Below, piece after piece: positions 4,990 through 35,879 of a DNA stretch of 35,879 bases (its first letter is position 1; every line of letters starts with the position of its first letter). Location of the stretch: NCBI GenBank assembly GCA_003990765.1, contig RBNJ01000235.1, positions 1-35,879 of the forward strand, read 5' to 3'. A program made the position numbers and the translations under genes. The notes beneath the pieces are model-generated. The model did not search any database, was not told where the DNA came from, and saw nothing but the letters and a program-made list of their open reading frames with translations. The stretch comes from Jimgerdemannia flammicorona. Its lineage: Eukaryota.

Positions 4990-5772
4990 AGAGCTATACC
5001 ATAGATTAATCAGCTATCTTGAGCAGTAGAAGATGCTCAACAACCTCAAACTCTGGACTATTACTATCATTAACTGAACTTGGAAATATTTGAACTAGAT
5101 AACACCATACTCAGAAAAGGAGGAAAGTTCATTATATCTAAATATAAGAAGTATCAAGTAATGAAAGAAGTATACTAACAATGATACCTAAAAGGAACTA
5201 ATATATATAACAAGGTAAGAAGAACTATGTGGTGATCTAAGATAGAAGAAAATCTATACCAATTTGTCAAAGAGTATGATAAGTACTAAAAACAGAAACA
5301 AGATCAGCAAGACCAGGTACCTGGATTATCAAGAATTGAACCTATCCCCTTCTACTACATTACAATGGACATCATTGGACCACTATCAGTAACTCTATCA
5401 GAAAACTACTATATTATAGTTATTATAGATCTCTTTACTAAATAGATAGAAGTAGACATATTACAAGAAGTTAATATTCTCTCTATTGCTGACTTTAAAT
5501 CATCTGCCACTATAAGATACCAAGACAAATTAATACAGACCATAGCACAGAATTTATCAATAGATTTTATAAAATAATATATCAGAAATACAAAATTCAG
5601 TATATCAAGACTACTATATTACTCTCAAGAAAATGGATAGATAGAAAGAACAAACAAGACCCTCAAGAACATTCTGGCCAAGATCTCAGACATATATAAA
5701 AATTAGGATAACTATCTCCCAACTACTCTCTCTGTTCTATGAGATATATAGTCACATAGTATATACTTTATC

Positions 5773-7779
5773 TGTAAGCACACAACCTCTAAGCCACTGA
5801 AATCATACATCACTCTCTGAACAAGCCATTGAAATTACATGTGACCTCTGAACAAATCTAGAAATCACCTGCAAGATCATGAAGCTGAGTGAAACTGAAG
5901 TCACAGCATATAAAGCTAAGTTAATATGAAGTTATAGAATACAAAAATTATACAAATAGGATCTTATCAATTAGGACCAAATGCCTATATCAAGCACTAA
6001 GATATGTTGAAATAGAGAACTACAACAAACCAAACAAACAATTCCAACTTCTAAACATATATACAAACATGACCACTGATATCTACAACTGCATCCATAC
6101 TGACATTTGAAATGCCATTGTCAACTGAGCCACACCTCCTCTGCCCCTCATGAATATCTATAGCTTAGCACCCCTCTACATCATGGAAGCCTGATAGAAT
6201 ATTCTGAATATACTTAGCAAAGTCCACTGAATCAGACAAATCTCAAGCTACTACCAGATCAGCTGTCTCCTAGAAGACATGGTTGAATATTACTACAATA
6301 TAGACATTTTCCAGATATCTCAATATCAGAAGCTTATTACTTGCAAATACCAAGAACTCTTTTATGAGTATAGCACTATTATTTCCTATCTCTGAGTTAC
6401 TACTACCAATATAGTTGCTACTCTATTCTATGGCCAAATTGATAATATGATATAAGAACTCAACCACAAGTATATTGAGTATATTCAAACCACAGACAGA
6501 ACCTTCTCATACCCCAATGACTATATCTTGCAAATGCTCTAAGTTGGATATACCATGAAGGACATTTATGATATAATCCAGTTCGATAACAATGAAGCAG
6601 AAGACAACAATCTCTCCAACACTGACATAATCTCAAGCCAAGGATCTCTGCTAATCCTGATCACCCTACCAATTTTGCTGATGAACTTACAATAGTTTAT
6701 AATCACCTATGAGACTTATTGGAACAATGATCACTAGTATAAGTATCAACTAATATTTATCTCTAATTACTTTAACTATAATGAAGAGACCAGAGAATAT
6801 AATCTATATCTTCAGACAACCCTCAAGATCAAACCAACAACTCCACCACTCAAGTATAAGCAATATGAAGTACAACTGCCAGTATACTACAACTCTGCAA
6901 CTCATAGCACTATAACTTATAGAAGGTATGCAGACAGCAAATCTGATGAAAGTGAAGATGATACACTCTTTCTTCACCCACCAACTCCTTATCCAGTATA
7001 TGAGACAGATGATACTATCCTATGAGATAGTGATGAAGTTTCAATATATTATTACCTCAACATATAAGGAAAAGTAATCCATAAATAACTCTTTTTAGAT
7101 AACTACTTCATCAGAGATAATATCATCAATAGTGATATCATCAAAGACTACCCAGATAGTGTTTAAATCTATAGATAGTCTAGCAGTCATAGTATAGTTA
7201 GATTAGCCTTATACTATATGACTGCATTCCAACTTAGCAAGGCACTAAGTGCTATATCTATATCTAGCCTAGTCTAGATAGCCTCTCACTAGTATAAATA
7301 TCCCCTCCCCCAGACCTCAGAATCTCAGACTTGAATACATAAGAACATTTCTAAGCACTTCTCCACAATATTCCTTCATATAACTACTACTAGTATAGCA
7401 ATATTATAAATAGCAAATAAACCTATTTAATAACCCACAAACCACTCTTAAGTAAATCTACTCTCCATTAGATCCTACTCCTAACCCTATCATGGAATTT
7501 CCTAATTGGGTATTGTCTATAGCGATATATCAATTCAACTAAGCTAGTCTTAGTTTCTTAAACTTCCTGAAATATGGAAAATCCTGAACATCCAGAACTA
7601 GTCTGAAAAAAGACTTTGGTTGAGACATTAATTTGATCTTGAAATCAATAAGTATAGAGGATGTACTCTATATGAAATTGATCTTGACCTTAAGAAAATA
7701 GTCTTCCAGAATATCCAGAACTTCCAGAAAATCTTTACAGAACTATGTAATAGTTACCCTAACAAGTAACCCTCTTATA
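5773..7779 (+). mobile_element. Solo LTR of a third family (C), ~2.0 kb
   Basis: Absent from the colinear A3 integrase; termini TGTAAG...CTTATA (= CTTACA with C>T); flanks TTATC/TTACT fit a 5-bp TSD of TTACC in the empty site; TATAAATA 7293-7300 and AATAAA 7416-7421. Confidence 0.8.
6069..7167 (+). pseudogene. Accessory ORF3 homolog inside solo LTR C (3' end approximate)
   Basis: Reads MTTDIYNCIHTDI(R)NAIVN(R)ATPPLPL...SYYQISCLL...QKLITCKYQELF when transition-derived stops are reverted; aligns with the family A LTR ORF. Confidence 0.7.
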
Positions 7780-8179
7780 TTACTCCAAGAGAACTACTCT
7801 TTAGAGAAGATTCTGATTGATAGATTGACTTAGAAATCTGAAGACTATACTAAATTAGGAAGAAGACAGAAGATTATATTATCAAGTTATAAGAATTAAT
7901 AAGAAAGAATGCAGAAAAGAATCACAAGACCCTAGAACCCATTCAAATTGGAGAAAAGGTCCTACTGTATTAAAATATAGTAGAAGCCTTATAATTATAA
8001 AAACTGAAACCCAAATAGAAAGAACTCTTCTATATATAAGATATCAAAAGAACTACCTTCTGACTTAGAAAACTCTCAGAGACCATACTATCTACTATGA
8101 TATACAGAAACAGACTCAAGAAGTATCATGAATCTATATAAGGTCCAGGAATCACCAAGACTTCTCAGTTCAAGAAAGG

Positions 8180-8968
8180 ATGTTCCAAGATATCAGGAGA
8201 GCTATGAGAACCTATATTAGAAGGATTTCTAGTCTTAATATAGGTATTAGTAATTCTTACTACTTTACTCTCTACTGCTATAAAATAGAGATAAGAATTA
8301 CTACTGCTACCAAATATCTCTGAATGTAGTAGAAATATAAAATATAAAACCTCCTCTATTGGGAATTCTCTCAGGCCAGCCTCCAAGAGATATAAGATAA
8401 TACCTCTATAGATATATATAAATTGAGGATAGCCAAAAAGATTCATCAGGTCTTCAGATATGCACCTTGGTCACTCTCCAACTTGGAGTATATCAGAGTC
8501 TCAGACTTTAAGAAATTATCAGCCTACTATACAGATGTACCTGAAGTCATGATAGCTATAGAAGTCCAATCTACCATCACTCTCAAAAGTGATAAGGTAG
8601 AAGAATTCTGAAATTCCATTCTTTAGGACAATCTAGATCAATTTCTGCAAGAATTAATCTCAGTATTTCAAGGCTCCAGTATTCAGGTCAGACCTCCTCA
8701 AGATTCTACCTTTATTCTCTACTTTATAGAAGAAAACATTATAGATTGAAGAGCTCCTGATCTCCTTCCTACTACTATTGAACATGATGACATCACTGGC
8801 AATTATGTTATCCTGTTAATTGATATGTACAAAATATATGAAACAAATGAAATACTTACAGAAACATTTACTGACCTTATTTTCTTTGAAGACATCCTAT
8901 CTTTGATCTCTAGTCTTAATGACAGTAATGAAGATGAAGCCTATAGGATTTTGAACATTCTACTCTAA
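8180..8968 (+). pseudogene. Accessory ORF3 in the A1 3' LTR (~262 codons)
   Basis: Same frame at start, middle and end: MFQDIRRAMR...RIAKKIHQVFRYAPWSLSNLEYIRVSDFKKL...ILNILL*; internal stops are transition-type. Confidence 0.78.
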
Positions 8969-9480
8969 TTTATATATATATAACTATTTATTTGAATACT
9001 TGAATATTCCAGTATTCTGACCTTATATAACTTTCAGAAATTATTCCAGCATTCTGATCTTGTATAACTAATTATATAGGCACTCAAATTTGTACTTATA
9101 ATCTGAAGTTTTCTGTATTCAAATATCTTATTTAGGTATTAAATTTTATATTTAGCTTTATATCTTAGCAATTATTGATTTATATTCTATATAAATATCT
9201 CTTTCATTTCCTTTGAAATAAAGTCAATATTAAAACACTCAAGTATTTAAGTACTCAACTACTCAAGAGTATAAAAGTTCTAGTCCTCTACTCAATTCCA
9301 TATAAGTAAATCTAAGAGATAACAAAACAGTTTAAAGATAAGAAGTTTGAGGACTATAAGATCTTGAAAAGGTACTCCAATAAGAACTTACTTATAAGAA
9401 ACTTATAGTTGGTCTAAGAGATATATATATCTTGAAGAGAATCTAATATACTTAAAGATCTCAGTACCCACTATATAATA
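8181..9480 (+). repeat. A1 3' LTR (start inferred at TGTT after purine tract AAGAAAGGA)
   Basis: Matches 23-893 over its 3' part and ends CTATATAATA; 5' boundary is inference. Confidence 0.7.
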
Positions 9481-10179
9481 ATATATATATTTGAGTAGTT
9501 ATAATAGTTTTAGTTTCTATATAAGGAAATAATAAATCTAAAATTTTCTAATAGATCTAAAGTAGCTTAAAGAGATATATACTTAAAGGTTTAAGTAATC
9601 TTTCTGAGCTTTATTTAAGTAGATAAAGGAGATATTTATATAAGATCTAAAGAAGAATTCAGATTAATCTTAAAAATAAAAATAAAAAAATAAAAAAAAG
9701 ATAGTTTTAATAAAAGATAATTAATATAATTTTATAATATTTTAAGAAGTTTTATAACTGATACTTAGTGCTAAAAAAAGACAAAAATATTTTAGTAAAG
9801 TTTTAGTATTAAGAAAGAATTTTTAAATATTTAAAAAATACTAAAACATTATAAAAATAGACTATAACTAAGATATAACTAAGAAATTATTAAATCTCTC
9901 TTTTTTTAAAAATTAATATTCTTATTAAATTCTAAAATTATATAAAAATAACTATACCTAACTAAAATTTCTCAAACTTATATAAAATATCACTATAAAG
10001 AGTTAGTTACTTCATTAAAATAAAACTAAAAGCTTAGTAACTAGAAGTTTGAACTTTATAAAGAGTAATTTTTATATATTATAATAAGTATACACTATAG
10101 TATAGCTAGATAATATATATATAAAGAATACTTAATATATATAGTTATCTTATATAGTTACTTATATATTACAATTTAT
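9481..10179. other. Extremely AT-rich spacer between A1 and A2, probably a heavily deaminated repeat relic
   Basis: Very few C/G, TA-rich, no ORF in the track. Confidence 0.5.
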
Positions 10180-11684
10180 TATAATAGTGACCTCAGAATG
10201 ATGACATCAGTACAAGAGTCAGCCTTTCCTTATAAGTCACCAGATTGGAATACAAGAAGATCATATGGCATAACTCAGGCTATAAGATGAGTAATGGTGA
10301 CCAACTATGAGTCATTGTGACCACAGTTTAGGCATTTTGAGAAATATAAAAGAAGGATCAAGAAACTACAGTAGTAGCAACCAATAAGACCCACTAATTC
10401 CAAAATAGCTCAAAGACTTACCACAAATGAAATATCTGCTACTTGCTAAACCTTAAGGTCAAGGAACTACCAAGGTATCTCAGTTGAAGAAAGAATGTTC
10501 CAAGATATCAGAGGAGCCATGAGGACCCATATAAGAAGAACTCCTAGCCTCAACCTGAGTACTGTAGATCCTTATCACTTTATCCTCTACTGCTATAAAA
10601 TGGAAACAAGGATCACCATTGCTACCAAATATCTCCAAATATGGCAGGAGTATGAAATAGAAAACCTTCTCTGCTGGGAGTTCTCACAGGCCAGCCCCTA
10701 AGAATTACAAGACATCACTCTCATGGATATACAAGAAGCAAGGATAGCTAAGAAGATTCATCAGATCTTCAGACATATACCATGGTTGATCTCTAACTTG
10801 GAGTATATTAGAGTCTCAGATTTCAGAGATCTGTCAGTCTATTATATCAATGTACTAGAAGCCAGAGTGACTACAGAAGCCCAGTCCACTATCACCCTCA
10901 ATAGTGATAAAGTAGAAGACTTCTGGCATCTCATCCTCTAGAACAACTCAGATCAATTTCTGTAAGGATTAATCTCAGTATTCTAAGGCCCAAGCATCTA
11001 GGTTAGATCTCTTCAAGACCCTACATTTATTACTTATTTTGTATAAGAGAACCTCATAGATTGGAGAGCCCCTGATTTTCCCACTGCCAAACATAATGAT
11101 GTCATTGGTAATAATGTCATCTTATGCAATATACATAAAGCATACAAAATGCACAATCTATGTGATAAGACTAAAATGTTCATGGATCTTATCTTCTTTG
11201 AGGACAGTGATGATGAGGATGAAGCCCCTATGGTCCTGAACATTCTGCTCTAAGTCTCTTAGTTACACTGAATTATGCCAGCATCCTTTTCCTATATAAT
11301 AGCTATTTCTCCATTAGCATTCTGAATCTGTGCAATCATCTATACTGACCCTGAAACTTGGCGGTTTTCTGTGTTCCAGCATTTTATTTGATTATTGGAA
11401 TTTATATTTAGCTTTATATCTTAGCAACTATTGAATTATATTTTGTATAAATATTCTTCTTATTTCCTCTGAAATAAAGTCAGTTTTAGTTCACTTATAC
11501 ACAATCTCTTGCAAGCAATATAAAGAGATAATAAGACAGTTTAAAGATAAGAAGTTTGAGGACTATAAGACCTTAAGAAGACACTCTAATAAGAACTTGC
11601 TTATAACAAACTTGAGTTAGTCTAAGAGATATACCTTAAAGAGAATCTGATATATTTGAAGGACTCAGCAACTACTATATGACA
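10180..11684 (+). repeat. A2 5' LTR (1505 bp)
   Basis: Starts TATAATAGTGACCTCAGAATG (= TGTAACAGTGACCCCAGAATG of A3); ends ATGACA. Confidence 0.9.
10495..11253 (+). pseudogene. Accessory ORF3 in the A2 LTR
   Basis: Track ORFs 10495-10701 and 10723-10941 share a frame that continues to ...MVLNILL* at 11253. Confidence 0.8.
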
Positions 11685-11687
11685 ACT

Positions 11688-11705
11688 TGGTACCTGTTGG
11701 CTGGT
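11688..11705 (+). other. Primer-binding site of A2
   Basis: TGGTACCTGTTGGCTGGT, 3 nt after the LTR CA. Confidence 0.8.
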
Positions 11706-11756
11706 AATTCAAGATGAATCCCTCACTTTCAAGCTGAAAAACAAACAACTACCACA

Positions 11757-14700
11757 ACAACTACCCTGACTACAAGAGTCACCCCTGCAAGAATTCAAGA
11801 TAAGATAGAAATATGTCCCCCCACATTATATAGATATACTACTAAAGAGTCAATCATTAAAGACTTTGAATAATTTGCTACTATTCAAGCCCTCAACATG
11901 GATACATAATTGGCCCTTCTACCAGTTAGTCTCAGAGGACCTGCCAGAGGTAAGTTTAATATAGCCACTATTGCTGATGCTGGTGCAGCCAAACTTACCA
12001 ACATAAAAGCCTTTCTCAGAACAACATACTATACTGAAGAGATCAAGCAAGCTCTCAAAGATCAACTCAATACTATCTGCCAGGGACTCAGTGAAGATCC
12101 CAACTCATTCTATATCCAAATCTGCTACCAGATTGTCTTGGCTGACTATGATGACTACCTTAAGAAACAAATAGCAGATTCAACCTTCCTCAAAGGAGTT
12201 CACTCTGAAATTGCCCTAGCAATCTAGTCTACCCCAGCTGCACTGACCCTTGATCAGAAAGTGGTCTTTATATAGAGATATTAGACTACCAGACACTCAG
12301 CTAAATACTCAATAGAGAAAATAACTGGCATCAAGATAGAGCAATCAAAGTCAACTAGTATCATACCTACCATAGTTGTAAACAGACAACTATCCCTATC
12401 TATCCCCAAAGCAACCAAAGTTGATCCAGTAGAGAAACTCACCAAGCAGTTTGCTGAGATGGCTGCATATCTTGGTGATATTGTTAGAGAAGTCTGAAGT
12501 ACCAACAGGAGACCAGTGCAGAGATTTATAGCTGCTACAGAAGAATGCAATATTACATGCTTCAGATATGGAGAAGAAGGCCACTATGCAAAGAGTTGCA
12601 TGACTGAAACAAGATACAAAGCCCAGCCAATTAATGCTAGCAGAACTAGAGAACAAATCAATGCAGTAGTCATCAAGGAGATTGATGATACTGATGATGA
12701 AGAATACTATGAGGAGTTTGAATTTTACCCTGCTACTGAAGGTATCAGAACTCAGTCCAAGCCCTATGACAAGAAGAGCAACAGCAAGCCAGTTGGAAGA
12801 CCAAAGAAGACCCCAGCTATCACTATCTAAAGTAATATCCAACCTAAGGAGATTGATCAAGACATAGAGTTAGATGAAGCTATCTGCCAAATTATTGAAG
12901 GTACTACTCCAGTCTCTGGAGAAAGCAAAAGCAAGAAGAAACAGAAGCTATATAAGACTAAGATCCACTAGTATGATATCTATAAGAATCTTAAGAAATA
13001 GAAGATCAATGCTACTTTTGGACAGCTAGCTGAAGTCTCTGCCTTCAGATAGCAGTTAAGAGTAGGACTTGCAACTACTGCCAAGAATAAAGAGTATAAG
13101 ATTGTAGAAGCTTACAATGCACAAGAAGATGATCAAGAAGACTTAGGTAAAGAATCTGAAGACCAGTGTAAGACATCAGCCTATACCCTATGTCAGATTG
13201 AAGATTGTATCTTTGATGCCATTATTGATACCAGTGCTGGAAGATATCTCATGAGCAAGAAAGTCTAGACTGGGACATTGAAGAGTCCACCAAGATGGTC
13301 TATGTTACAGTAGATGGTACACAAGCTACCCCTCTTGGCAAAATCTGAGAAGTCTCCATTAAGATAGAAGGAGCTATCATCCCAGTAGATGTGATTGTTA
13401 TAAGTACTACCAATTATGATATTCTCATTAGTAATCAATGGCTTTACAAGGCCAAGGCCATTATTGATCTCAATGTCTAGAAGATATAGATCAACTATAG
13501 AGAAAGAAAGATACAAGTCTCTATTAATGTCCACAAAGGAGTTCTACCAGACATAGAGAAAGGAGATGAAGAGGATACAGAAGTCTTCATACACTTGGTG
13601 AAAAAAAATAAAAATAAGACACCCAAGCTCACAGATGAGTAGTAGTATAACAAGATCATCAATAACTATACTTCTCAAGAAAGCTGCCCCCATGGTACTA
13701 GGATGTACTGCTCTGAACACCTGAATGACTGCTGGTCCTATATCAGTGAAGTCAGGAAAATCTATCAACAGAAGCATGAGCAAGAAGCTACTGAAGTAAA
13801 AAGGAAAGCTGAAGAAGATGACCAGCCCCCAGAGCTGTAAGCTGACAGTGATGATGAGGAGGAATAAGAACCAGACATCATCCTCAAGGTTAAAAAGTTT
13901 CACCCTGAAGCCAAGATCCCAGAATATAAGACTAAAGGAGCCATAGGAATAGACCTTGCCAGTATTCAAGATACTACTCTTGAACTACAGACCACCACTC
14001 TACTTAGTACCAGAATTGGAGTCAAGCTGCTAGAGAACCATGTTGAAATTATCAAGACCAGAAGCAGTCTGGCCAAAGAGTAATTGACCCTGATTACACT
14101 GGTGAGATCTTCCTCATAGTCAGGAATTACAACCCCACTACCCCATTCAAAGTTAAGAAGTATGACAGGATTGGCCAGATACTGATCTATGAAATTAAGA
14201 AGCCCAAGATCACTGAAGTCATTGAACTCATCAAGATCAAGAAAGGAGAACAAGGCTTTAGATCTACTGAAAGAGGAGTCTATACAGCCACCAAGATTAC
14301 CAAACTTGAGCACAAGAAAGACAAGGACCAGAATAAGTACACATATATCATTGGAGAAAACTTTCCTCTGGAAGAACAACTTCCTAAGATCCTATACTAG
14401 AATGAAAGAGTACTTGCTACAGACTTCAAGAATATCTACAATCAAGAACTCAAGTACTATTATGAAGTTGATACTAGTAATACCAAGCCCATCTACCAGA
14501 AACTCAGACCCATACCACCTACCTATAGAGAATGACTGCAAGCAGAACTCAAGGAAATGGAAGAAGCTGGAATTATCAAGCAAGCTATCAGTCTCTGGGC
14601 TTCACCTATTGTCCTTGCCCCAAAGAAAGGAAGCAAGCCTGGAGAGTTTGTGTTAAGACTCTGCATTGACTACAGAAAGCTCAATACAATCATCAAGAAG

Positions 14701-15568
14701 AATAGACAGTTCTTGCCAAATATTCAAGAAATCCTTACTACTCTTGGAAGCAAAGCCAAATACTACACCACCTTGGATCTGTTCTCAGGCTTCCATCAGA
14801 TTGGTCTCACTCAAGATGCCAGTGAGAAATCAGTCTTCATCACACTTGATGCCACATATCTACCTGTGAATGCCATTTTGGAATATGCAATACCCCAGCA
14901 AGTTTTTAGTAAATAATGAACAGAGTCTTCAGTAATGAGATTGGAAAATAGCTCTTTGTCTATATTGATCATATGATCATCTTCAGCAATACTACACAGA
15001 AATATATCAACCACATACAGCTAGCCCTCAAGAAGCTCAAGGAGCATGGCCTCTACATCAAGTCTAATAAATGTAAGTTTGTGGCTCAGGAAATCGCCTA
15101 CCTAGGACATCTCATCAACCAGACCAGAATCCACACAGACCCCATGAAGATTGAGGCTATTGCAGCCTACCCAAGACCCAGAACAATCACAGAAGTCCAT
15201 GCCTTCCTTGGACTGACCTCCTACTACAGAAGATTCATCAAAGAATACTCTAACATTACAGCACCTATCTATGAGCTACTGAAGAAGGAGGTTAAATTTG
15301 AATGGACCAAAGAACACTAAGAAACCTTCAATGAACTCAAGATCAGATTGACCCAAGCATCTATCCTCAGAAGACCAGATTAGAACCTATAGTTCATCCT
15401 ACAGACAGATGCAAGTGCTATAGAATATAGAGCAGTCCTAGCTCAGAAGAAAGATAGACATGAATATGTCATCTATGCAAGCTGAGATACCTGTAGAGTA
15501 GAACAGAACTATGAGTCATGTAAGTTCAAATGCTTGGCAGTAGTTTGAGCAGTAGACAAGTTTTACTA
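11757..15568 (+). pseudogene. A2 Gag-PR-dUTPase-RT-RNase H(partial) pseudogene
   Basis: CFRYGEEGHYAKSC knuckle, AIIDTSAG, dUTPase ~13880-14272, WASPIVL/RLCIDYRKLN/LDLFSGFHQI, FLGLTSYYRRFI, QTDAS. Confidence 0.92.
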
Positions 15569-16163
15569 AGTAGAAGAGTAATTATAGTAGATCAGTTAAG
15601 TGTCAGACTAGTGATAGTTATTAGGGCTGAGATAAGTACTATATCAGTGAGACCTTCTGATTGGTACAGGACAGTAGATAATAGATATCACTCTTGGCTA
15701 TTCTTGATATATTACAGTATTGCTTAGAGATTATTGAAGAGTCTAAGGCTATCTAGATTAGATGTCTTAACTATACTCAAAAGCTGATATAGTAATATAA
15801 TTGAAATTTACAGACTTGTGTAGTAGGATATTAGAGGTCTCTTCTGATCTTATATATAAGTTCTCTACTTACTTCATTAGAAAGAACTAGATTTTATCAA
15901 CTATTTTGTATTTTTGAGAGAGTTTTTTCTTTATCTATCACTCTTTTTGAGGTAGCAGAGGCTATTCTATTTAGCTTAGATATAGTCTTATATTTGAACT
16001 ATATATATATATAAAATATTATATAATGAACTAAGATTACTTTTTATTTAATTATTTTTATTAATCTTATAAATAATGAAATAATATAAATTTAAAATTA
16101 TTTTACTTTTTTTTTTTATCTTTTATATTTATGTAATTATTTTTAATATAATTATAATAATAC

Positions 16164-16190
16164 TATTATTATTATTATTATTATTATTAT
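16164..16190. repeat. (TAT)9 microsatellite within AT-rich tract ~15990-16285
   Basis: Read directly. Confidence 0.85.
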
Positions 16191-16285
16191 ATTATATTTA
16201 AATTAGAAATATTTTTAATTAATAATAATAATAATATCTTAAAGTTATTAAAATTTATTTATTCTTTATTATATTCTTTATATAT

Positions 16286-16751
16286 TATAATATAGCAGAC
16301 ACTTAATCTTGGAAGTACATCAGATTTCTATATCTTGAAAACTTGATCTTCTTTGACTCTACAGAGTCCTCAGGATATAGGAGTGGGTAAATTAGAAGTA
16401 TATCTGCCCACAGGCTTACTAGTTCCTTTACTTTCTCTTGCTTTGAACTATTTCAATTTGAGGTTTATTCACTCTAAGATACTGGATTATTATATAAGTT
16501 TGCTAGCTATAAGATAGTTAAGTTATAACTATATTTGCTATGAGATATTTTCTGCAAGTATTAAATCATTTAACATCTGTGAAATCTTCAATATTCACAA
16601 AAACTTCAATATTTGTGAAAACTTTTAATAGTTGCAAAATAATAATGACAGCTATTTATAAGACTATACTATATTGGAAATTGGATTCAGATACTATAAT
16701 TAAATATTTAATTCTCCTGATTTATATTTCTAATTTGGATCAGCCATCACA
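16286..16751 (-). repeat. B 3' LTR (~466 bp, inferred)
   Basis: On minus strand starts TGTGAT after a purine tract and ends ATTATA (= ATCACA deaminated); 3' end resembles family A U5 (AATCTGATGTACTT); partner LTR not in window. Confidence 0.65.
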
Positions 16752-17228
16752 ACTTCTTCCTAAATAGGTAATTCATCTCTAAAATATTCTATTCAAACTT
16801 CCAAGCTTCTATGATTTATATCTCCTTGTACTGTGCAATTTGCACCATTATATACTTTCAGTATTATCTCTTGATATATCTGAAGTCTTCTGAAACTACT
16901 TCATAAAGATAGACTAGAGCTGGCTCATTGTCTTTAAACATCTTATTGACTTGTTTGGTAGTTGTGATCTGAGTTTAAGAGAGCTGGTACTCTCTAATCT
17001 AGTCTTCTTTTCCCATATCTGACTATAAGTTTAATAGCTATCCTAACTTGAAGTATTTTTGAAACTTGGTTCAGTTCTAGTAGGTCTTAAAGTGTGAGAT
17101 TTATAACAAGTATGTCTGAACTATACTCTATATACTGTCAAAGGATTCTTCTATAATCAGTGGCTCAGTAGTACACCATTGTCTTTCTATGGCTCACTGT
17201 ATAGTACTGATGATCTTGAGTACTCCAT
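16747..17228 (-). pseudogene. Accessory ORF3 of B, between integrase and PPT (~160 codons)
   Basis: LKIISTIQ(R)AIERQ...KFQKYFKLG(Q)LL...TTKQVNKMFKDNEPALVYLYEVVSEDFRYI; the ATG at 17228 needs a 1-nt indel to be in frame. Confidence 0.65.
16753..16761 (-). other. B polypurine tract
   Basis: AGGAAGAAG one base before TGTGAT. Confidence 0.6.
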
Positions 17229-17231
17229 TAG

Positions 17232-17750
17232 TTAGTCATGATACTTCTTGAGTTGGTTTCAGCAAATAGTAGTAGGGATGATTATTTCTATAAGTTTTCA
17301 TAACCAAAAGGTAGTCTCTTTTATATCTTGCACAAGATAAGGTCCTTCTCACTTAGACTTTAGTTTTCATGACCATGAAGCTTCTACCATGTTCTGATAT
17401 ATCAGGACCTTATCTCCTATCTTGATAATCTCTAGGGGCTTATGGATTTTTTCTGTATTATTCCATTGTAGTGTCTGCATCTTAGTTATGTAATTCTCAG
17501 CCTTCTTTATAATTTGGTATAGTCTCTATATTTCTCTGTCTACACATTTTCATACAGTATTCCTATTAGATAATAGAGTTTCTTGAGAACTTTCTTCTCT
17601 GAACAGCATTTTCCAGAGAGTGAAATGAGTGCTTTGTGATCAAATATTTCAGAGAGCAGATAATACTATTGATAGATAGTGATCTCAGTTTTCATAGTTA
17701 TTACAGATCTTGGCAATAATATTCTTAAGAGTCTTATTGGTCCTTTCTGT
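17232..17750 (-). pseudogene. B integrase, C-terminal part
   Basis: ERTNKTLKNIIAKI ... EGPYLV ... NQLKKYHD*. Confidence 0.85.
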
Positions 17751-19244
17751 TGTCATGTAGTGGTCGCTGAGTCCTTCAAATATACCAGATTCTCTTCAAG
17801 ATGTATCTCTTAGACTAACTCAAGTTTGTTATAAGCAAGTTCTTATTGGAGTGCCTTCCCAAGGTCTTATAGTCCTCAAACTTCTTATCTTTAACTATCT
17901 TGTTATCTCTTAGATTGCTTGCAAGGCAGTGTATATAAGTGAAATCAGAACTGACTTTATTTTAGAGGAAATAAGAGGGGTATTTATACAAAATATAATT
18001 CAATAGTTGCTAAGATATAAAGCTAAATATAAATTCCAATAACTAAAACTACTAAGTTCCAGAGTTGGTACTGATGGTTGTACAGGTTCAGGATACTGGT
18101 ATAATTCAGTATCACATCAGAATACTGATGCTGGAATAATTTCGTGTTATCTCAGAATACCAGTGCTGGTATTATCTAGTGTAATAAAGAACTTAGAGCA
18201 GAAAGTTCAGGACCATGGAGGCTTCATCCTCATCATCAGAGGTCAGGATATCTTTGAAGGAGATGAGGTCCACAAATTTGTCATTTTTGCATACTTCAAT
18301 GTTGTGTGGAGTGACATCATTGCTGATGATGTCATCACATTTAGTGGTAGGAAGGAGGTCTGGGGCTCTCTAGTCCATGAGGTTCTCTTCCACAAAATAG
18401 GGGACAAATGTGGGGTCTTGGGGAGATCTATCTCAGATACTTGGGCCTTGGAATACTAAGATCAATCCTTGCAGAAATTGGTCTGGGTTGTCTTGGAGGA
18501 TGGGGTGTCAGAAGTCTTCTATTTCATCACTATTGAGAGTGATAGTAGACTGGGCTTCTGTAGCCACCCTGGCTTCTAGTGCATTGATATGGCAGGATGA
18601 CAGGTCTCTGAAATCTAAGACTCTAACATACTCCAAGTTGGGGATCGACTATAGTGCATGCCTGAAGATCTAATGGATCTTCTTAGCTATCTTTGTTTTG
18701 CATATATCCATAGGAGTGGCATCTTATAGCTCTTGAGTGCTGGCCTGTAGGAACTCCTGGCAGAGGAGATTTCCTATTTTGTACTCCTGCCACATTTGGA
18801 GGCATTCAGTAGCAATGGTGATCCTTGTTTCCATTTCATAGTAGTAGAGGATAAAGTTATAGGGATCTGCAGTACCCAGGTTGACACTAGGAGTCCTTCT
18901 TGAGCAGGTCCTCATGGCTCTTCTGATGTCTTAGAATATCCTTTCCTCAACTAAGAGGCCTTGGTAATTCCTTGATCTTGAGGTTTGGCAGGCAGTAGGC
19001 ATTTCATTTGTGATAAGTCTTTGAGCTATTTTGGGATTGGTGGTTCTTGTTGGTTGCTGCTACTGCAGTTCCTTGATCCTTCTTTTATATTCTTCAGGAT
19101 GCTTGTACTGTGGTCACAATGACTCACAGTTGGTCATCATTGCTCATCTCATATGCCATATGATCTTCTTGTACTCTGATCTGGTGGCTTGCAAGGAAAG
19201 GCTGTCTCCTGTGCTGATGTCATTATTTTGGGGTTGCTGTTACA
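17751..19244 (-). repeat. A3 3' LTR (1494 bp)
   Basis: TGTAACA...ATGACA on minus strand; colinear with 24940-26418. Confidence 0.95.
18193..19002 (-). pseudogene. Accessory ORF3 in the A3 3' LTR
   Basis: Same frame as track ORF 18724-18915; ends ...MVLNFLL*. Confidence 0.78.
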
Positions 19245-19253
19245 TCTTCCCCT
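19245..19253 (-). other. A3 polypurine tract
   Basis: AGGGGAAGA abutting TGTAACA. Confidence 0.85.
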
Positions 19254-19556
19254 GAATAAGGATCTTCCTGAACATCCTTATTCATTGGTCCAGTCCTGAA
19301 AAATTTGCTGATCCCATAACCTCTGGCAAGGGGTTGAAAAGTGGTATTTATGGGCTGGTGTCTTCCCTTTGTATTTTGGTGTGATGGTGAAGGGTTGCTC
19401 CCTTCATATAGAGCAAGGGCCTGATTCTGATCTTGACCAATCAGTTGATGGTTCAAACTCCTCTAACTTCGAAAGTCTCATGGATAAGTAGTTACCAGTG
19501 CCATATCCCTTAGTGAATGGTCCAGACAGATAGCCTGCTGGTCATGGGACATACTG

Positions 19557-20804
19557 TTATGATTTGCAGACTAGAACCTTATGGGCAGTCATCACATTTT
19601 GCTTCTCTTGTATAGGTTTGTGGTACTTCTTGAGTCTGTTCCTATGTACTGTAGTAGGTAATATGGTCCCTGAGATTTTTTTAAGCCAGATGGTGGTTCC
19701 CTTGATATCTTGTACATAGAAGGGTTCTTCTCATTTGGGCTCCAGTTTTCGCAACCATGAGGCTTCTACCATATTTTGATACAGTAGAATCTTTTCTCTG
19801 ATTCAGATGGATTCTAGGACCTTGTGATTCTTTTCCACATTCTTTCTTGTTAGTGCTTGTGACTTGGTGATGTAATCTTTAGCCTTCTTCCTAATTTGGT
19901 ATAGTCTCTGGATTTCTGCATCAACCCATCTCTAAGTTAGGTTTAGATTTGTGGCTGAGGTTCCATCAGAATCTTCTTCTCTGAAGAGCAGCTCTCTTGG
20001 GGTAAAGTGTGTACTCTGTGACTATATATCTCATAGGATAGAGAGGGCAGTTGGGAGATAGTTATCCCAATTCTCATATGTCTCTGAGATCTTCACTAGG
20101 ATGTTCTTGAGAGTCTTGTTAGTTCTCTCTGTCTATCCATTTCCTTGAGGGTGGTATACAGTGGTCTTGATGTGCTGGATCTTGTATTTCTGATATATTA
20201 TCTCATAAAATCTATTGACAAATTCTGTTCCATAGTCTGTTGTGATTTGTTTTGGTATCTTGTAGCAGCAGATGATTTCTCAGTACAGGAAGTCAGCTAT
20301 AGAGAGGACATTGGCTTCTTGTAATACTCCTACCTCTATTCATTTGGTGAAGAGGTCTACAATAACTATAATATAGCGGTTTTCTGATAGTATTACTGGT
20401 AGTGGTCCAATGATATCCATTGCAATGTGGTGGAAGGAGATAGGCTCAATTCTTGATGACTCAGGTGCCTGGTCTTGCTGATCTTGTTTCTGTTTTTGGC
20501 ACTTGTCACACCCTTTGACAAATTGGTGCAGGTCTTCTTCCATCTTGGATCACCACATAGTTCTTCTTGTCTTATCATATGTGTTAGTTCCTCCTAAGTA
20601 TCCTTGCTTGTGTACTTCCTTTATTACTTGATACTTCTTGTGTTTGGATATTACTAGCTTTTCTCCTTTTCTGAGTGTAGTGTTGTCTAGTTCAAACTGT
20701 TTTCAAGTTTGGTTGATAATAGTGATTATCCAGGGTTTGAGGTGGTTGGTCATCTTCTGCTGCCCAAGATAGCTGATTAATCCATAGTATAGCTCTTTAT
20801 TCAT
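19557..20804 (-). pseudogene. A3 integrase (separate ORF, MNKELYYGLISYL...); 3' end approximate
   Basis: HKQGYLG...CDKC zinc finger, AMDIIGPLP, TDYGTEF, YHPQGNG(Q)TER, KLEPK..EPF, RNRLKKY. Confidence 0.92.
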
Positions 20805-23800
20805 ATTGAATAGTCTTGATGGGGATGTTTTGGGGTATCCTTGAGAGTGCATCGGCATTGGTGTTGGTCTTTCCTGAGTGGTGCTTGACAGTATAGTCAT
20901 ACTCTTGCAGCCTGTAGATCTATCTGGCATATATTCATTTAGAGTTCAGAGTGTGGAATAGCCAGGTAAGAGCAGAGTGGTCTGTTTGAATGGTGAAGTA
21001 TTTCCCAGATAGGTAGTAGTGGAACTTGTCTACTGCCCAAACCACTGCTAAGCATTCAAGCTTATATGACTCATAGTTCTGTTCTGCTCCATAGATACCT
21101 CAGTTTACATAGGAGATGAAATATTCATATCCATCTTTCTTCTGAGCTAGGACTTCTCCAAGTCCTATAGCACTTGCATCTGTCTGCAGGATGAATTCTA
21201 GATTCCAGTCTGGTCTTCTGAGGATAGGTGCTTGGGTCAACCTGGTCTTGAGTTCATTGAAGGTTTCTTGGTGCTCCTTGGTCCATTCAAATTTGGTCTT
21301 CTTCTTCAGTAGCTCATAGATAGGTGCTACAATGTTGAAGTATCCTTTGATAATTCTTCTGTAGTAGCTGGCCAGTCCAAGGAAGGCATGGACTTCTGTA
21401 GTTATTCTGAGTCTTGGGTAGACTGCAACAGCCTCAATCTTCATAAGGTCTGTATAGATTCTGGTCTGGTTGATGAGGTGTCCTAGATAGGCGATTTCTT
21501 GAGCTGCAAACTTAAATTTCTTGGGCTTGATGTAGAGGCCATGCTCCTTGAGCTTCTTGAGGGCTAGCTGTATGTAATTGATATATTCCTATATAGTGTT
21601 GCTGAAGATGATCACATCATCAACATAAACAAAGAGCCATTTTCCAATATCATTGCTGAAGACTCTGTTCATCATTTGCTGGAAACTTGCTAGGGCATTG
21701 TACATTCTAAATGGTATTCGCAGGTAGATATAGGTGGTATCAGGTGTGATGAAGGCTGATTTCTCACTGGCATCTTGAGTGAGACCAATTTGATGGAAGC
21801 CTGAGAACAGATCCAAGGTGGTGTAGTATTTGGCTTTGCTTCTAAGAGTGATAAGGATCTCTTGAATATTTGGCAAGAGCTGTCTATCCTTCTTAGTGAT
21901 GGCATTGAGCTTCCTGTAGTCAATGCAGAGTCTTGGCACAAACTCTCCAGGTTTGCTTCCTTTCTTCAGGGCAAGGACAATGGGTGAGGCCCAGGGGCTG
22001 ATAGCTTGCTTGATGATTCTGACTTCTTCCATTTTCTTGAGTTCTGCTTACAGCCACTCTCTGTAGGCAGGTGGTATGGGTCTGGCTTTCTGGTAGATGG
22101 GCTTGGTATTACCAGTGTCAACTTCATAGTAGTACTTGAGTTCTTGATTGTAGATATCCCTGAAGTCTGTAGCAAGTACTCCTTCATTCTGGTGCAGGAT
22201 CTTGAGAAGTTGTTCCTCCAGGGGAAAGCTTTCTCTAATGGTATATGTGTGCTTGTTCTAATCCTTGTCTTTCTTATGTTCAAGTTTGGTAATCTTGGTG
22301 GTAGCACAGGCTCCTCTTCCAGTAGATCCAAAGCCTTGTTCTCCTCTCTTGGTCTTGATGAGTTTGATGGCTTCAATGATCTTGGGTTTCTTGATTTCAT
22401 AGATCAGCATCTGGCCAATCCTGTCATGCTTCTTGACTTCGAATGGGGTGGTGGGGTTGTGATTCCTGACTATGAGGAAGATCTCACCAGTGTAATTAGG
22501 GTCAATTACTCCTCCTTCAACTGAGATTTCACTTTTGGCCAAACTGCTCCTGGTCTTGATAATTCTGGCATGGTTTTCTGGCAGCTTGACTCCAATTCCA
22601 GTGCCAAGTAGGGTGGTGGTCTGTGGTTCAAGGGTAGCATCTTAAATGCTGGTAAGGTCCATTCCTATGGATCCTTTAGTCTTGTATTCTGGGATCTTGG
22701 CTTCAGGGTGAAACTTCTTGACCTTGAGGGTGATGTCTGATTCTTGTTCCTCCTTATCATCACTGTCAGCTTGAAGCTCTGGGGGCTGGTCATATTCTTT
22801 GGCTTTCCTTTTTGCTTTGGTGGCTTCTTGCTCATGTTTCTGTTGGTGGATTTTCCTGACTTCACTGATACAGGACCAGCAGTCATTCAGGTGTTCAGAG
22901 CAGTACATCCTAGTACCATGGGGGCATCTTCCTTGAGGGGCATACCTATCGATGATCTTGTTGTACCACTGCTCATTTGTGAGCTTGGGTGTTTTGTTCT
23001 TGTTCTTGTTCACCAAGTTCATGAAGACCTCTGTGTTCTCTTCATCTCCTTCCTCCATGTCTGGTAGAACTCTCTTGTGGACATTGATAGAGACTTGTAC
23101 CTTTCTTCCTCTATAGTTGATCTGCATTTTCTGGGCATTGAGGTCAATGATGGCCTTGGCCTTGTGAAGCCATTAGTTGCCAATGAGGATGTCATAGTTG
23201 GTGGTGCTTGTAACAATCACATCTACTGGGATGGTAGCTCCTCTTATCTTAATGGGGACTTCTCGAATTTTGCCAAAGGGGGTAGCTTATGTACCATCTG
23301 CTGTAACATAGACCATCTTGGTGGACTCTTCAATGTCCCAGCCTAGGTGGTTAATTGTCTTCTTGCTCATAAGGTATTCTCCAGCACCAGTATCAATGAT
23401 GGCATCAAAGATACAGTCTTCGATTTGACATAGAGTATAGGCTGATATCTTGCACTAGTCTTCAGATTCTTCACCTAAGTTCTTAGATTCTTCCTGTACA
23501 TTGTGAGCTTCTACAATCTTGTACTCTTGATTCTTAGCAGTAGTTGCAAGTCCTACTCTCAACTGCTATCTGAAGGCAGGGACTTTGACTAGCTATCCAA
23601 AAGTGGCATTGACCTTCTGTTCCTTGAGATTCTTATAGATATCATACTGGTGGATCTTGGTCTTGTGCAGCTTCTGTTCCTTCTTGCTTTCACTTTCTCC
23701 TGAGACTAGAGTAGTATCTTCAATGATTTGGCAGACAGCTTCATCTAACTCTATGTCTTGATCAATCTCCTTGAGTTGGGTCTTGCTTTGAATATTGACA

Positions 23801-24868
23801 GCTGGGGTCTTCTTTGGTCTTCCAACTGGCTTATATTACTCTTCTTATCATAGAGCTTGGACTGGGTTCTGGTACCTTCAGTAGCAGGGTAGAATTCAAG
23901 CTCCTCATAGTATTCTCATCATCAGTGTTACCAATCTCCTTGATGACTACTGTATTGGTTTGTTCTCTGGTTCTGCTAGCATTACTTGGTTGGGCTTTGC
24001 ATCTTGTTTTGGTCATGCAATTCTTTGCATAGTGGCCTTCTTCTCCATATCTGAAGTATGTGATATTGTGTTCTTCTATAGTAGCTGCAAATCTCTGCAC
24101 TGGTCTTCTGTTGGTACTTCAGACTTCTCTAACAACATTACCAAGGTATGCAGTCATCTCAGTGAACTACTTGGCGAGTTCCTCCACTGGGCCAGCTTTG
24201 GCTGTCTTGGGGGTAGGTGGGGTTGGTTGTCTGTTTACAACTATAGCAGGTATGATACTAGTTGGCTTTGATGGCTCTATCTTGATGCTAGTTATTTTCT
24301 CTATTGAGTGTTCAGCAGGGTGTCTGGCAGTCCAATATCTCTGTGCAAAGACTACTTTCTAATCAAGGGTCAGTACAGCTGGGGTAGACTGGATTGCTAG
24401 AGTAATTTCAGGGTGAACTCCTTTGAAGAAGATTGAATCTGCTATTTGTTCTTGAGGTGGTCATCATAGCTAGCCAAGACAATCTGGTGGCAGATTCAGA
24501 TATAGAATGAGTTGGGATCTTCACTAAGTCTCTAGCAGATAGTATTGAGTTGATCCTTGAGAGCTTGCTTGATTTCTTCAGTATAATATGTTGTTCTGAG
24601 GAAGGTCTTTATGTTGGCAAGTGTGGCTGTACCAGCATCAGCAATAGTGGCTGCATTGAACTTATCTCTGGCAGGTCCTCTGAGGCTGACTGGTAGAAGG
24701 GCCAATTGAGCATCCACACCAAGGGCTCATATGGCAGCGAATTGTTCAAAGTCTTCAATGAAGATCAGGATTGACTCTTCAGTAGTATATCCATAGAATG
24801 TGAGGGGGCACATTTCTATCTTATTTTGAATTCTTACAGAAGTGACTCTTGTAGTCAGAGTAGTTGTT
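20797..24868 (-). pseudogene. A3 Gag-PR-dUTPase-RT-RNase H polyprotein pseudogene (start approximate)
   Basis: Track fragments 24717, 23127, 22542, 22032 and 21444 are in one frame; AIIDTGAG, SPWASPIVL, VYVDDVIIFS, QTDASAIGLG, NADALSR. Confidence 0.95.
22318..22730 (-). pseudogene. dut: dUTPase domain within A3 pol
   Basis: GSIGMDL, RSSLAK, GGVIDPNYTGEI, DRIGQML, RGEQGFGSTG = motifs I-V. Confidence 0.95.
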
Positions 24869-24918
24869 GTGGGGGTTGTTCATTTTTTAGCTTGAAAGTG
24901 AGAGATTTGTCTTGAATC

Positions 24919-24936
24919 ACCAGCCAATGGGCACCA
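24919..24936 (-). other. Primer-binding site of A3
   Basis: TGGTGCCCATTGGCTGGT, 3 nt after the 5' LTR. Confidence 0.85.
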
Positions 24937-24939
24937 AGT

Positions 24940-26418
24940 TGTAATGTAGTGGTCACTGAGTCCTTCAAATATACCAGATTCTCTTCAAGGTATATCTCTT
25001 AGACTAACTCAAGTTTGTTATAAGCAAGTTCTTATTGGAGTGCCTTCTCAAGATCTTATAGTCCTCAAACTTCTTATCTTTAACTGTCTTGTTATCTCTT
25101 AGATTGCTTGTAAGGAAGTATGTATAAGTGAAACCAGAACTGACTTTATTTCAGAGGAAATAAGAGGAATATTTATACAAAATATAATTCAATGGTTGCT
25201 AAGATATAAAGCTAAATATAAATTCCAATAACTAAAACTACTAAGTTTCAGGGTCGGTGCTGATGGTTGTACAGGTTCAGGATACTGATATAATTCAGTG
25301 TCACATCAGAATACCAGTATTGAAACAATTTTGTGTCACCTCAGAATACCAGAGCTGGCATTATCTGGTGTAACAAAGAACTTAGAGCAGAAAGTTCAGG
25401 ACCATAGGGGCTTCATCCTCATCATCAGAGGTCAGAATATCTTTGAAGGAGATGAGGTCTGCAAATTTGTTATTTTTATATGCTTCAATGTCACATGGGA
25501 TGATGTCATCACATTCAGTAGCAGGAAGGAGGTCTGGGGCTCTCCAGTCTATGAGGTTCTCTTCTACAAAATAGGGGACAAATGTGGGGTCTTGGGGAGA
25601 TCTAACCTGGATACTTGGGCCTTGGAATACTGAGATCAATCCTTGCAAAAATTGGTCTGAGTTGTCTTGGAGGATGGGGTGCCAGAAGTCTTCTACTTCA
25701 TCACTATTGAGAGTGATAGTGGACTGGGCTTCTGTAGCCACCCTGGCTTCTAGTGCATTGATATGGTGGGATGATAGGTCTCTGAAATCTGAGACTCTAA
25801 CATACTCCAAGTTGGGGATCGACCATGGTGCATGCCTGAAGATCTGATGGATCTTCTTAGCTGTCCTTGTTTTGCATATATCTATAGGAGTGGCATCTTG
25901 TAGCTCTTGAGTGCTGGCCTGTGGGAACTTCTAGCAGAGGAGGTTTCCTATTTCATACTTCTGCCACATTTGGAGATATTCAGTAGCAATGGTGATCCTT
26001 GTTTCTATTTCATAATAGTAGAGGATAAAGTGATAGAGATCTGTAGTACCCAGGTTGACACTAGGAGTTCTTCTTGAGTGGGTCCTTATGGCTCTTCTGA
26101 TGTCTTGGAACATCCTTTCCTCAACTGAGATGCCTTGGTAATTCCTTGACCTTGAGGTTTGGCAGGCAGCAGGCATTTTGTTTGTGATAAGTCTTTGAGC
26201 TATTTTGGGATTAGTGGTTCTTATTGATTGCAGCTACTGTGGTTCCTTAATCCTTCTTTTATATTCTTCAGGATGCTTGTACTGTGGTCATAATGACTCA
26301 CAGTTGGTCACCATTGCTCATCTCATATGCCATATGATCTTCTTGTGCTCTGATCTGGTGGCTTGTAAGGAAAGGCTGTCTCCTGTACTGATGTCATCAT
26401 TCTGGGGTCACTGTTACA
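24940..26418 (-). repeat. A3 5' LTR (1479 bp)
   Basis: TGTAACA...ATTACA on minus strand. Confidence 0.95.
25382..26176 (-). pseudogene. Accessory ORF3 in the A3 5' LTR (264 codons, one premature stop)
   Basis: Track ORFs 25931-26176 and 25382-25810 are in frame; the TAG is TGG/CAG in other copies (ancestral CGG). Confidence 0.85.
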
Positions 26419-27094
26419 CTGTCTATCTATTTTCTTAAGGATGATATGCTGTAGTCTGAATATATTGGATCTTGTACTTCTTATAGAGAATCTCAAAGAA
26501 CTAGTTCACAAATTCTATTTCTCTGTCTATAGTTACTTGTATTGAGGTCTTGAACTGACAGATAATTTCTTTGTGAAAGAAATCAGCAATTAACTATACA
26601 TTAGCTTTCTTGAGGGGTTCTGCCTCTATCCATTTTGTGAAAAGGTTTATGATGATAATGATATATCAGTTACCAGTCAAAGTCAAGGGTAGAGAGCCAA
26701 TTACATCTATTACAATGTAGACAAATAGTACTGGTTCTATGTGTACTGATCTTGGGGCTTAATTTTATTGATCTTGTTTCTGTTTCTAGTATTTTTTACA
26801 GGTCTTGACAAATTGTCTGATATCTTCTTTCATTCCTGGCCACCATATTGTCCTTTTTGCTTTATCATATATGTTCATTTCCCCTAGATGACTAAGTTTA
26901 TATACTGATTTCATTACTTGCTTCTTCTTGTGTTCTGGTATAACTAGTAGCTTTCCTTTCTTCAATATTTCTTCATCAGTTTCAAATTGTTTTCATATTC
27001 TGTTGATAATCATTTATATCTATTCTTCCAAATATTGGGGCATCTTTCACTATCTCAGATAGGTGATCATTCTATAGTAGAGCTCTTTATTCAT
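26419..27094 (-). pseudogene. B integrase, N-terminal part (MNKELYYRMITYL...)
   Basis: HLGEMN...WWPGMKEDIRQFVKT, DVIGSLP, DLFTKWIEAEPL, TTAYHP. Confidence 0.88.
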
Positions 27095-32220: not shown

Positions 32221-32234
32221 AGAAGATAAGCTTA

Positions 32235-35800: not shown

Positions 35801-35879
35801 GATAGAGAAAATCTGTAGATAGAGTGAGAGGAAAGTTGGAGTAGTGGGTAGCAGAGTGGTTTTCAAGTATGAGGGTATA

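Follow-up and report, generated by a model that had tools for sequence, protein, structure and literature searches.

Accessory frames in a nest of Ty3/gypsy retrotransposons

Positions 1 to 35,879 of contig RBNJ01000235.1 from Jimgerdemannia flammicorona (assembly GCA_003990765.1), the 35,879-nt stretch that is called the window below, are a nest of CpG-depleted, transition-decayed Ty3/gypsy retrotransposons with the pol order protease (PR)-dUTPase-reverse transcriptase (RT)-RNase H-integrase. Elements of two of its families, A and B, have an accessory frame beside pol. The family B version occupies the interval 16747-17228 on the minus strand; it begins with an ATG (17228-17226) and extends as far as a purine tract and TG (16761-16750; Table 1). 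To judge from its sequence relatives, this is a genuine, unnamed accessory gene common to two sister gypsy families, with no Pfam, Protein Data Bank (PDB) or fold match. It is embedded in the long terminal repeat (LTR) in family A and probably not in family B, so that the two families seem to have their LTR border on different sides of it.

An earlier note on this stretch had proposed that three divergent LTR families (A, B and a third, C) carry this protein, and that the gene was captured into the unique 3' region (U3) of the LTR by upstream relocation of the polypurine tract (PPT). All 12 of its motif strings occur in the order that it gave, with at most one or two changes or a stop, and the distances from the first block to the LL pair, computed from the motif coordinates, are indeed 56 (A), 58 (B) and 57 (C) residues. 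The blocks are present in four copies in family A (10504-10833 and 8189-8455 on the plus strand, 26104-25775 and 18930-18601 on the minus strand) and in one copy each in B (17205-16873, minus) and C (6102-6398, plus, the claimed frame). Membership in one protein family holds for A and B; for C it is unsupported. We give a probability of about 0.6 to the explanation as a whole: a real, unnamed accessory gene in A and B, a shift of the LTR border between these families, and a C element that is unrelated or unrecognisably decayed.

The element map is based on self-comparison, reading of junctions and Pfam. Element A3 has the paired LTRs (91% identical), TG...CA ends, PPT and short target site duplication of a Ty3/gypsy element, and Pfam recognises in it, in order, aspartyl protease, dUTPase, RVT_1, RT_RNaseH, Integrase_H2C2 and rve domains. 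Element B has dUTPase, RVT_1, RT_RNaseH, Integrase_H2C2 and rve in the same order, and the pol regions of A and B are 65-68% identical in nucleotides; the two are sister families. A long interspersed nuclear element (LINE) cuts B at ~30280, so that the B gag start and 5' LTR lie outside the window. The observed/expected CpG ratio of the window is 0.02, and 111 of the 118 substitutions between the 5' and 3' LTRs of A3 are transitions. All frames are full of stops because of this CpG depletion and transition decay, and they were read throughout with X at stop codons.

Table 1. Coordinates of elements, LTRs, accessory frames and signals in the window
Feature	Position	Strand	Description
A1	1 to ~9478	plus	Starts within its own 5' LTR
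A1 5' LTR	1-894	plus	Cut by window start
A gene in A1 5' LTR	18-173	plus	Part of the C-terminal half
C	5773-7779	plus	2007-bp insertion in A1 integrase
A1 3' LTR	8139-9478	plus	Remnant
A gene in A1 3' LTR	8180-8965	plus	Remnant
A2	10182-15568	plus	5' LTR (10182-11684) and part of interior; truncated at 15568
A gene in A2 5' LTR	10432-11250	plus	Decayed start
B	30270-26419; 17750 to ~16286	minus	pol, then remainder; interrupted by A3
B putative 3' LTR	16286-16751	minus	466 nt; starts TGTGATGG, ends ...TATTATA; AT-rich flank beyond
Signals in B putative LTR	16660-16653; 16469-16464	minus	TATAAATA; AATAAA
B purine tract, putative PPT	16753-16761	minus	AGGAAGAAG; 27 nt after gene stop, 1 nt before TG
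B accessory frame	16789-17228	minus	Starts at ATG 17228-17226, stops at 16791-16789; helical N-domain; contains one frameshift and 11 internal stops
B integrase, C-terminal part	17232-17750	minus	Ends ...LKKYHD; stop 17234-17232; upstream part resumes at 26419
A3	17751-26418	minus	Complete Ty3/gypsy element nested in B integrase core
A3 target site duplication	26419-26422; 17747-17750		ACAG, 4 bp
A3 3' LTR	17751-19244	minus	1494 bp; TG...CA ends; PPT AGGGGAAGA just before, at 19253-19245
A gene in A3 3' LTR	18196-19002	minus	More decayed than 5' copy
A3 5' LTR	24940-26418	minus	1479 bp; TG...CA ends
Second TATA and AATAAA, A3 5' LTR	25177-25171; 25150-25145	minus	TATAAAT and AATAAA behind the gene, in the part homologous to the B LTR; read by eye
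A gene in A3 5' LTR	25382-26176	minus	Best copy; 264 codons and stop, one internal stop
LINE	~30280 to 35879 (window end)	plus	Exo_endo_phos endonuclease and RT

The family A gene inside the LTR

The whole gene lies within the LTR in both LTRs of the complete element A3 and in the 5' LTR of A2, which bears out what had been claimed for this family, and in A3 its ATG is 242 nt inside the repeat. Contigs from three sequencing runs (X2, X3 and X4) join the start of the A LTR to the PPT; the runs used contain only 5-22% of the sampled words.

Relatives of the A frame exist as intact genes. A word-indexed protein search with this frame returned seven proteins, including intact ones of 247-342 aa at 34-80% identity: P0001 (247 aa, 80% identical to A), P0002 (271 aa) and P0007 (342 aa, 34% identical). 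Among 1.84 billion representative proteins, a profile search gave nine matches at E <= 1e-3. Six of these we judge to be true: P0001, P0007, P0008, P0005, P0009 (3e-16) and P0011 (286 aa, 5.4e-5), the last of which also matches P0001 by BLASTP (E = 4e-8). With P0017, from the word-indexed search, the relatives total seven. The other three matches are long repeat proteins that match in five to nine short stretches, and they were set aside. The protein family is taken here to comprise P0001, P0002, P0007, P0008/P0015, P0009 and P0011. The family profiles used below were made from seven or eight of 17 fetched proteins, leaving out the fragments P0004-P0006, the near-duplicates P0014 and P0016, and the three repeat proteins. 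All cluster members are encoded on metagenome contigs of 856-4848 bp. A metagenome scan yielded one further locus, L001 (1535 bp), with an open frame of 291 codons whose protein is 42% identical to A.

The pattern of change between copies points to a coding past. When differences in the A gene are counted by codon position (1/2/3), the two LTRs of A3, whose divergence is decay after insertion, give 21/18/21 (p = 0.86). Between lineages the counts are 61/41/93 for A1 against A3 (p = 2.5e-5), 61/38/91 for A1 against A2 (p = 1.4e-5) and 47/23/53 for A2 against the A3 5' LTR (p = 0.002). Differences between lineages therefore favour codon position 3, whereas the LTR pair within one element has no such bias; the A frame was therefore subject to purifying selection as long as the elements were active. 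The family A frame is a real gene.

The gene is also preceded by promoter-like signals of its own. A TATA box, TATAAAAG, stands at 26256-26263 (minus), 80-87 nt 5' of the ATG, and is kept in A2, A3 and L001; its distance from the ATG is 87 nt in A and 80 nt in L001. The ~25 nt directly preceding the ATG (AAAGACTTAYCACAAA...) are nearly identical between A (26177-26200) and L001 (352-375), for proteins that are 42% identical, which suggests a conserved leader or regulatory signal. As a whole, the pre-gene region of L001 resembles that of A3 to some degree (z = 3.96) and not that of A2 (z = 1.66), and its post-gene region has no likeness to A or B (z = 0.06 to 0.89). The A LTR has a second TATA box on the other side of the gene (Table 1). 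With a TATA box and leader before the gene and a TATA box and AATAAA behind it, each A LTR is potentially a small transcription unit besides being a terminal repeat.

These observations bear on the possibility that the frame is a fragment of a host gene carried passively in the LTR. LTR retrotransposons do capture host sequence, the family is without known function, and a protein atlas gives only weak leads to fungal hypothetical proteins (first matches at scores of 0.85-0.86), yet a passive fragment would be hard to reconcile with a gene that stays intact at 34-80% identity, with the codon-position bias between element lineages, with a conserved TATA box and leader of its own, or with a homolog at the same place in the sister family. 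All seven relatives, moreover, come from short, context-free metagenome contigs. We consider passive carriage of a host fragment very improbable.

A short form of the same protein in family B

The accessory frame of B is decayed, with one frameshift that follows from its ATG being in the integrase frame and its conserved blocks in the +2 frame. It can nevertheless be read against P0017, an intact protein of 121 aa, at 60% identity (E = 2.7e-38). Every in-frame stop of B aligns to a sense residue of P0017, and the two have a common end point.

The link from B to A passes through this protein. Scored against a hidden Markov model (HMM) of seven A-type database proteins only, P0017 reaches 15.7 bits (E = 4.2e-7 for one comparison), a score that none of 2000 shuffles equals; against a profile that includes P0011 it reaches 20.2 bits, and it matches P0011 itself by BLASTP (E = 3e-4). 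In profile-profile comparison, hhalign pairs P0017 with the A-type proteins over 80 columns (E = 8e-5) in the register of the earlier note, and the E-value is 1.4e-4 when B is added to P0017. Against the database-only profile the window B frame reaches 8.0 bits (0/1000 shuffles as high), and when all six frames of the window are scanned with this profile it is the sole match besides the A copies.

Several results weigh against the kinship. A and B do not match significantly when compared directly, whether by BLASTP (E = 45), by Smith-Waterman alignment (z at most 1.8, 27/500 shuffles as high) or by hhalign (E = 0.31 and 0.028); the independent E-value of B in the six-frame scan is a weak 0.41; and the case for B leans on one intact relative, P0017. 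P0011 gives no alignment with the window B frame, because the X positions break it. The profile-profile and shuffling check that had been suggested for the three proteins thus succeeds for A and B by way of P0017, and fails for A and B directly and for C. B is a decayed member of the same protein family.

What A and B have in common is a conserved helical N-terminal domain of ~105 aa. Two further parts are found in the A-type proteins: a conserved motif in the middle, WNPILQD..PDQ.LQ...F.GP.I....PYF...I.WR.P, and a tail that is strongly acidic, interspersed with hydrophobic residues and closed by ..VLNFLL. Neither the middle motif nor the acidic ..VLNF tail is present in B or P0017, both of which stop right after the N-domain, and B is therefore a short form. 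The C-terminal part of P0011 is different as well.

The putative LTR border in family B

The ATG of the B gene lies one codon (3 nt) past the integrase stop (17234-17232), and its stop is followed by AGGAAGAAG, a T and then TGTGATGG. This arrangement resembles the real PPT-LTR junction of family A, which reads TATTCAGGGGAAGA-TGTAAC compared with TATTTAGGAAGAAGTTGTGAT in B, where TGTGA comes after the purine tract. The 466 nt beyond it can be aligned over their full length with the LTR stretch behind the gene in each of the four A copies (434-513 nt). The global alignments have z-scores of 3.4-4.6, with 0/300 shuffles as high for each copy, and the terminal bases match (...CTACATTACA in A, ...CTATATTATA in B). 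An LTR alignment in a purine/pyrimidine alphabet was also tried and was uninformative, its scoring being too lax. The frame had been placed between the integrase stop and the PPT of an element with an LTR of ~466 bp; its position after the integrase stop and before a purine tract and TG agrees with this, as does the colinear stretch.

The A LTR resembles a B-type LTR lengthened at its 5' end by ~1035 nt, which bear the promoter-like box and the gene. In the most likely history the plus-strand priming site shifted across the gene, from one side to the other; one replication cycle would then have carried the gene into, or out of, both LTRs. Colinearity of the B and A LTRs is what such a shift predicts. 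To this extent the proposed relocation of the PPT is supported, in either direction: the gene may have been captured into U3 or, just as well, expelled from it.

A border shift has to be weighed against another history, in which the true LTR of B is A-like and includes the gene, and a deletion in this copy removed the integrase tail, PPT, LTR start and leader. Element A1 provides a precedent. From the end of its integrase to codon 7 of the gene, 628 bp are absent, which gives it the same integrase-gene adjacency as B. In A3 the missing 628 bp hold the integrase tail, PPT, LTR start, TATA box and ATG (A1 8040-8260 compared with A3 19700-19540 and 19060-18900, minus strand), and the break is flanked there by the microhomology CAAACCT..CAAGA. 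The A1 gene thus comes directly after the integrase because these 628 bp are missing, and since the 5' LTR of A1 keeps part of the gene (18-173), A1 is an A-type element with a deletion.

Besides this precedent, three further points tell against a border shift or fit a deletion as well. The short LTR of B is drawn from homology and signals, because its 5' LTR falls outside the window. The pattern of a purine tract plus TGTRA is no rarer than chance (six overlapping matches at three sites, shuffle mean 3.67). That the 466 nt run colinear with the A LTR behind its gene is equally expected if an A-like LTR lost the stretch from integrase to gene. B departs from A1, however, in having kept an ATG, 3 nt past the integrase stop and two codons ahead of the conserved SRS motif, for which A1 has no in-frame counterpart. 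The stop of B after the N-domain is common to the independent protein P0017, and the purine tract and TG follow 27 nt past that stop in a context like that of a real PPT-LTR junction in A. A weak additional point comes from soil-metagenome run X1, in which a contig of 222 nt ceases to match at 16749 and has 17 further letters without a match. On balance we regard a deletion in B as unlikely and prefer a shift of the border.

Read depth was also recorded for this region, as one figure per contig: contigs of run X1 at 16379-16491, within the putative LTR of B, have depths of 273-630, compared with 15-31 in the B gene region.

The claimed third carrier

C has TG...TA ends and a 5-bp duplication (TTATC at 5768-5772 and TTACT at 7780-7784), and it looks like a solo LTR. 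Its frame, read as a protein, scores at chance in comparisons with A or B: BLASTP gives E >= 1.2, Smith-Waterman alignment z = 0-0.7 and hhalign E = 0.73 and 0.25. The six-frame HMM scan of the window does not report it at E <= 1000, and its HMM scores are -0.7 bits (134/1000 shuffles as high) and -2.3 bits (650 of 673 scored shuffles as high). No relative of C was scored among 184 candidates from 5.8 billion proteins. The frame has 35 stops in 672 codons, near the 6.7% expected, and another frame equals it. The ends of C have no likeness to the LTR ends of A and B (z = -0.3 to 1.8).

One comparison does give a signal. A nucleotide alignment of the C middle with the A3 gene has z = 3.6 (2/200 shuffles as high), for this one of four A copies. 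It pairs A codon 99, in the LEYVRV block, with C codon 125 and not with the ISYLRV block of C; with A2 the score falls to z = 0.28, and with A1 the alignment shifts elsewhere. That two registers fit C about equally well marks the likeness as chance-like.

C could still be a true carrier, too decayed (34% G+C and ridden with transitions) for statistics to recover. Its 2007-bp length, TG...TA ends and 5-bp duplication give it the look of a solo LTR, its first motif lies 329 nt inside the element compared with 314 nt in A, its best HMM pieces are colinear with the register first proposed, and there is the z = 3.6 alignment to the A3 gene. Yet the protein comparisons by BLASTP, Smith-Waterman, hhalign and HMM are all at chance, nothing related turned up among the 184 candidates, the nucleotide alignment is in a different register that is lost with A2 and shifted with A1, the stop density is near expectation, and the ends are unlike those of the A and B LTRs. 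We therefore find this rather doubtful. As a third carrier C is not supported, and we treat it as an unrelated or unrecognisably decayed solo LTR.

Protein properties and possible action

As the earlier note had said, the protein contains no named domain. None of the seven intact family proteins matches Pfam at E <= 1, and the LTR frames are likewise without a match. The best hit of a PDB sequence search has E = 0.19. An AlphaFold model based on eight sequences has a helical domain at residues 25-130, with a predicted local distance difference test score (pLDDT) of 65-91, followed by a low-confidence region. Its overall quality is mediocre (mean pLDDT 61.7), which counts against leaning on it. 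Foldseek finds nothing at E <= 1e-3 in the PDB (best E = 1.9) or among the viral models of BFVD (best E = 0.17), and VIA-align gives no fold match among 48,161 chains (best Z = 4.2). Structure prediction, another of the checks suggested for this protein, thus supplies a helical N-domain and no fold.

In the seven A-type proteins scored, the last 60 residues have a net charge of -6 to -16 (-8 in P0011), and about a third of them are hydrophobic. P0001 and P0002 start with a basic stretch. On these features the most likely role is that of a nuclear regulator or adaptor, encoded by the element and acting on it in trans. Nucleic acid or protein would be bound through the helical domain, and a host factor would be drawn in by the acidic-hydrophobic tail, much as retroviral transactivators do. 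Because there is no fold, Pfam or PDB match, an action read from composition alone is a guess, and we hold it with low confidence.

A wider conjecture, which we likewise put forward as a long shot, is that each A LTR is a self-contained gene, with TATA box, leader, 264-codon open reading frame (ORF) and poly(A) signal. A regulator acting in trans might then be expressed from LTRs and solo LTRs by the hundred; its acidic tail would recruit host machinery to activate the LTRs of the family or shield them from silencing, and B would show that one shift of the priming site suffices to bring such a gene into the repeat or take it out. If this were true, LTR borders would act as a switch by which evolution could alter how many copies of an accessory gene there are (its dosage) and how autonomous it is.

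Relation to known systems

Genes in or across the LTR are familiar from retroviruses. The sag gene of mouse mammary tumour virus (MMTV) lies in U3, nef of the human and simian immunodeficiency viruses (HIV/SIV) overlaps U3, and foamy-virus tas/bel has its own internal promoter and runs into U3. The family A gene resembles sag, nef and tas in being an extra gene that follows pol, lies within the LTR or spans its border, and is thereby copied into both LTRs. Like tas it has a promoter-like TATA box of its own, and the acidic-hydrophobic tail of the A-type proteins is reminiscent of retroviral transactivators. It differs in that the host element is a Ty3/gypsy retrotransposon in which no env was seen here, and in that the whole gene, not part of it, lies within the LTR in A. 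No likeness to the sag, nef or tas proteins was found in sequence or fold, with the limits of a middling-confidence model (Foldseek best E = 0.17 in BFVD and 1.9 in the PDB).

Among retrotransposons, the part of PMC2864245 that was available describes fungal Gypsy elements with a dUTPase between PR and RT, for example PosPlaTy3-5 of Postia placenta, and draws fungal Gypsy elements with an 'add. ORF' of unknown function. The A and B elements share with these the dUTPase between PR and RT and an extra frame beside gag and pol; the A frame lies inside the LTR, a position that this part of the article gives to no extra frame, and it describes no protein of the A/B kind. A dUTPase between PR and RT has been reported for some basidiomycete Gypsy elements. 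Bdelloid rotifer LTR retrotransposons have captured additional ORFs, which are common to diverse elements, according to the accessible part of PMC5408684. ORFs beyond gag and pol are the point of likeness; the host group and the proteins are different, and ORFs inside LTRs go unmentioned in that part. In the literature on ORFs within retrotransposon LTRs, in which subscription journals were thinly covered, we found no description of the A/B protein or of a gene inside a fungal retrotransposon LTR.

Little is understood of the extra genes that LTR retrotransposons carry, especially in hosts other than plants and animals. The present one was maintained by selection in both sister families. If the border shift between A and B is true, it would be a clean natural example of how a move of the priming site reshapes an LTR, gene copy number and promoter context, and the same logic would apply to the placing of sag, nef and tas into retroviral LTRs. 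Annotators are also warned that genuine genes can go unnoticed in long LTRs and that a solo LTR, too, may have coding capacity.

Other features of the window

Two bases past the 5' LTR of A3, TTGGTGCCCATTGG at 24925-24939 (minus) is a likely primer-binding site. The dUTPase between protease and RT lies at ~22700-22300 in A3 and at ~28980-28600 in B (minus strand in both). No Chromo match was found in A3 (E <= 0.01) or in B (E <= 0.001), in decayed frames whose stop codons were replaced by X. In run X1, three contigs join 17748/17749 straight to 26424-26442, across the position of A3; such empty-site joints mean that B copies exist without the A3 insertion. Metagenome contigs mostly have G or C at sites where the window has A or T, and methylation-driven decay of repeats or decay of the kind caused by repeat-induced point mutation (RIP) fits this G/C, the CpG loss and the transitions. 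The LINE-like non-LTR element has a very strong G-over-C skew (0.34-0.52). The elements are flanked at 9480-10180 and 15960-16300 by low-complexity, A/T-rich sequence of ~20% G+C; the two regions are ~60% alike and may represent either the DNA into which the elements first inserted or repeats that are very old and decayed.

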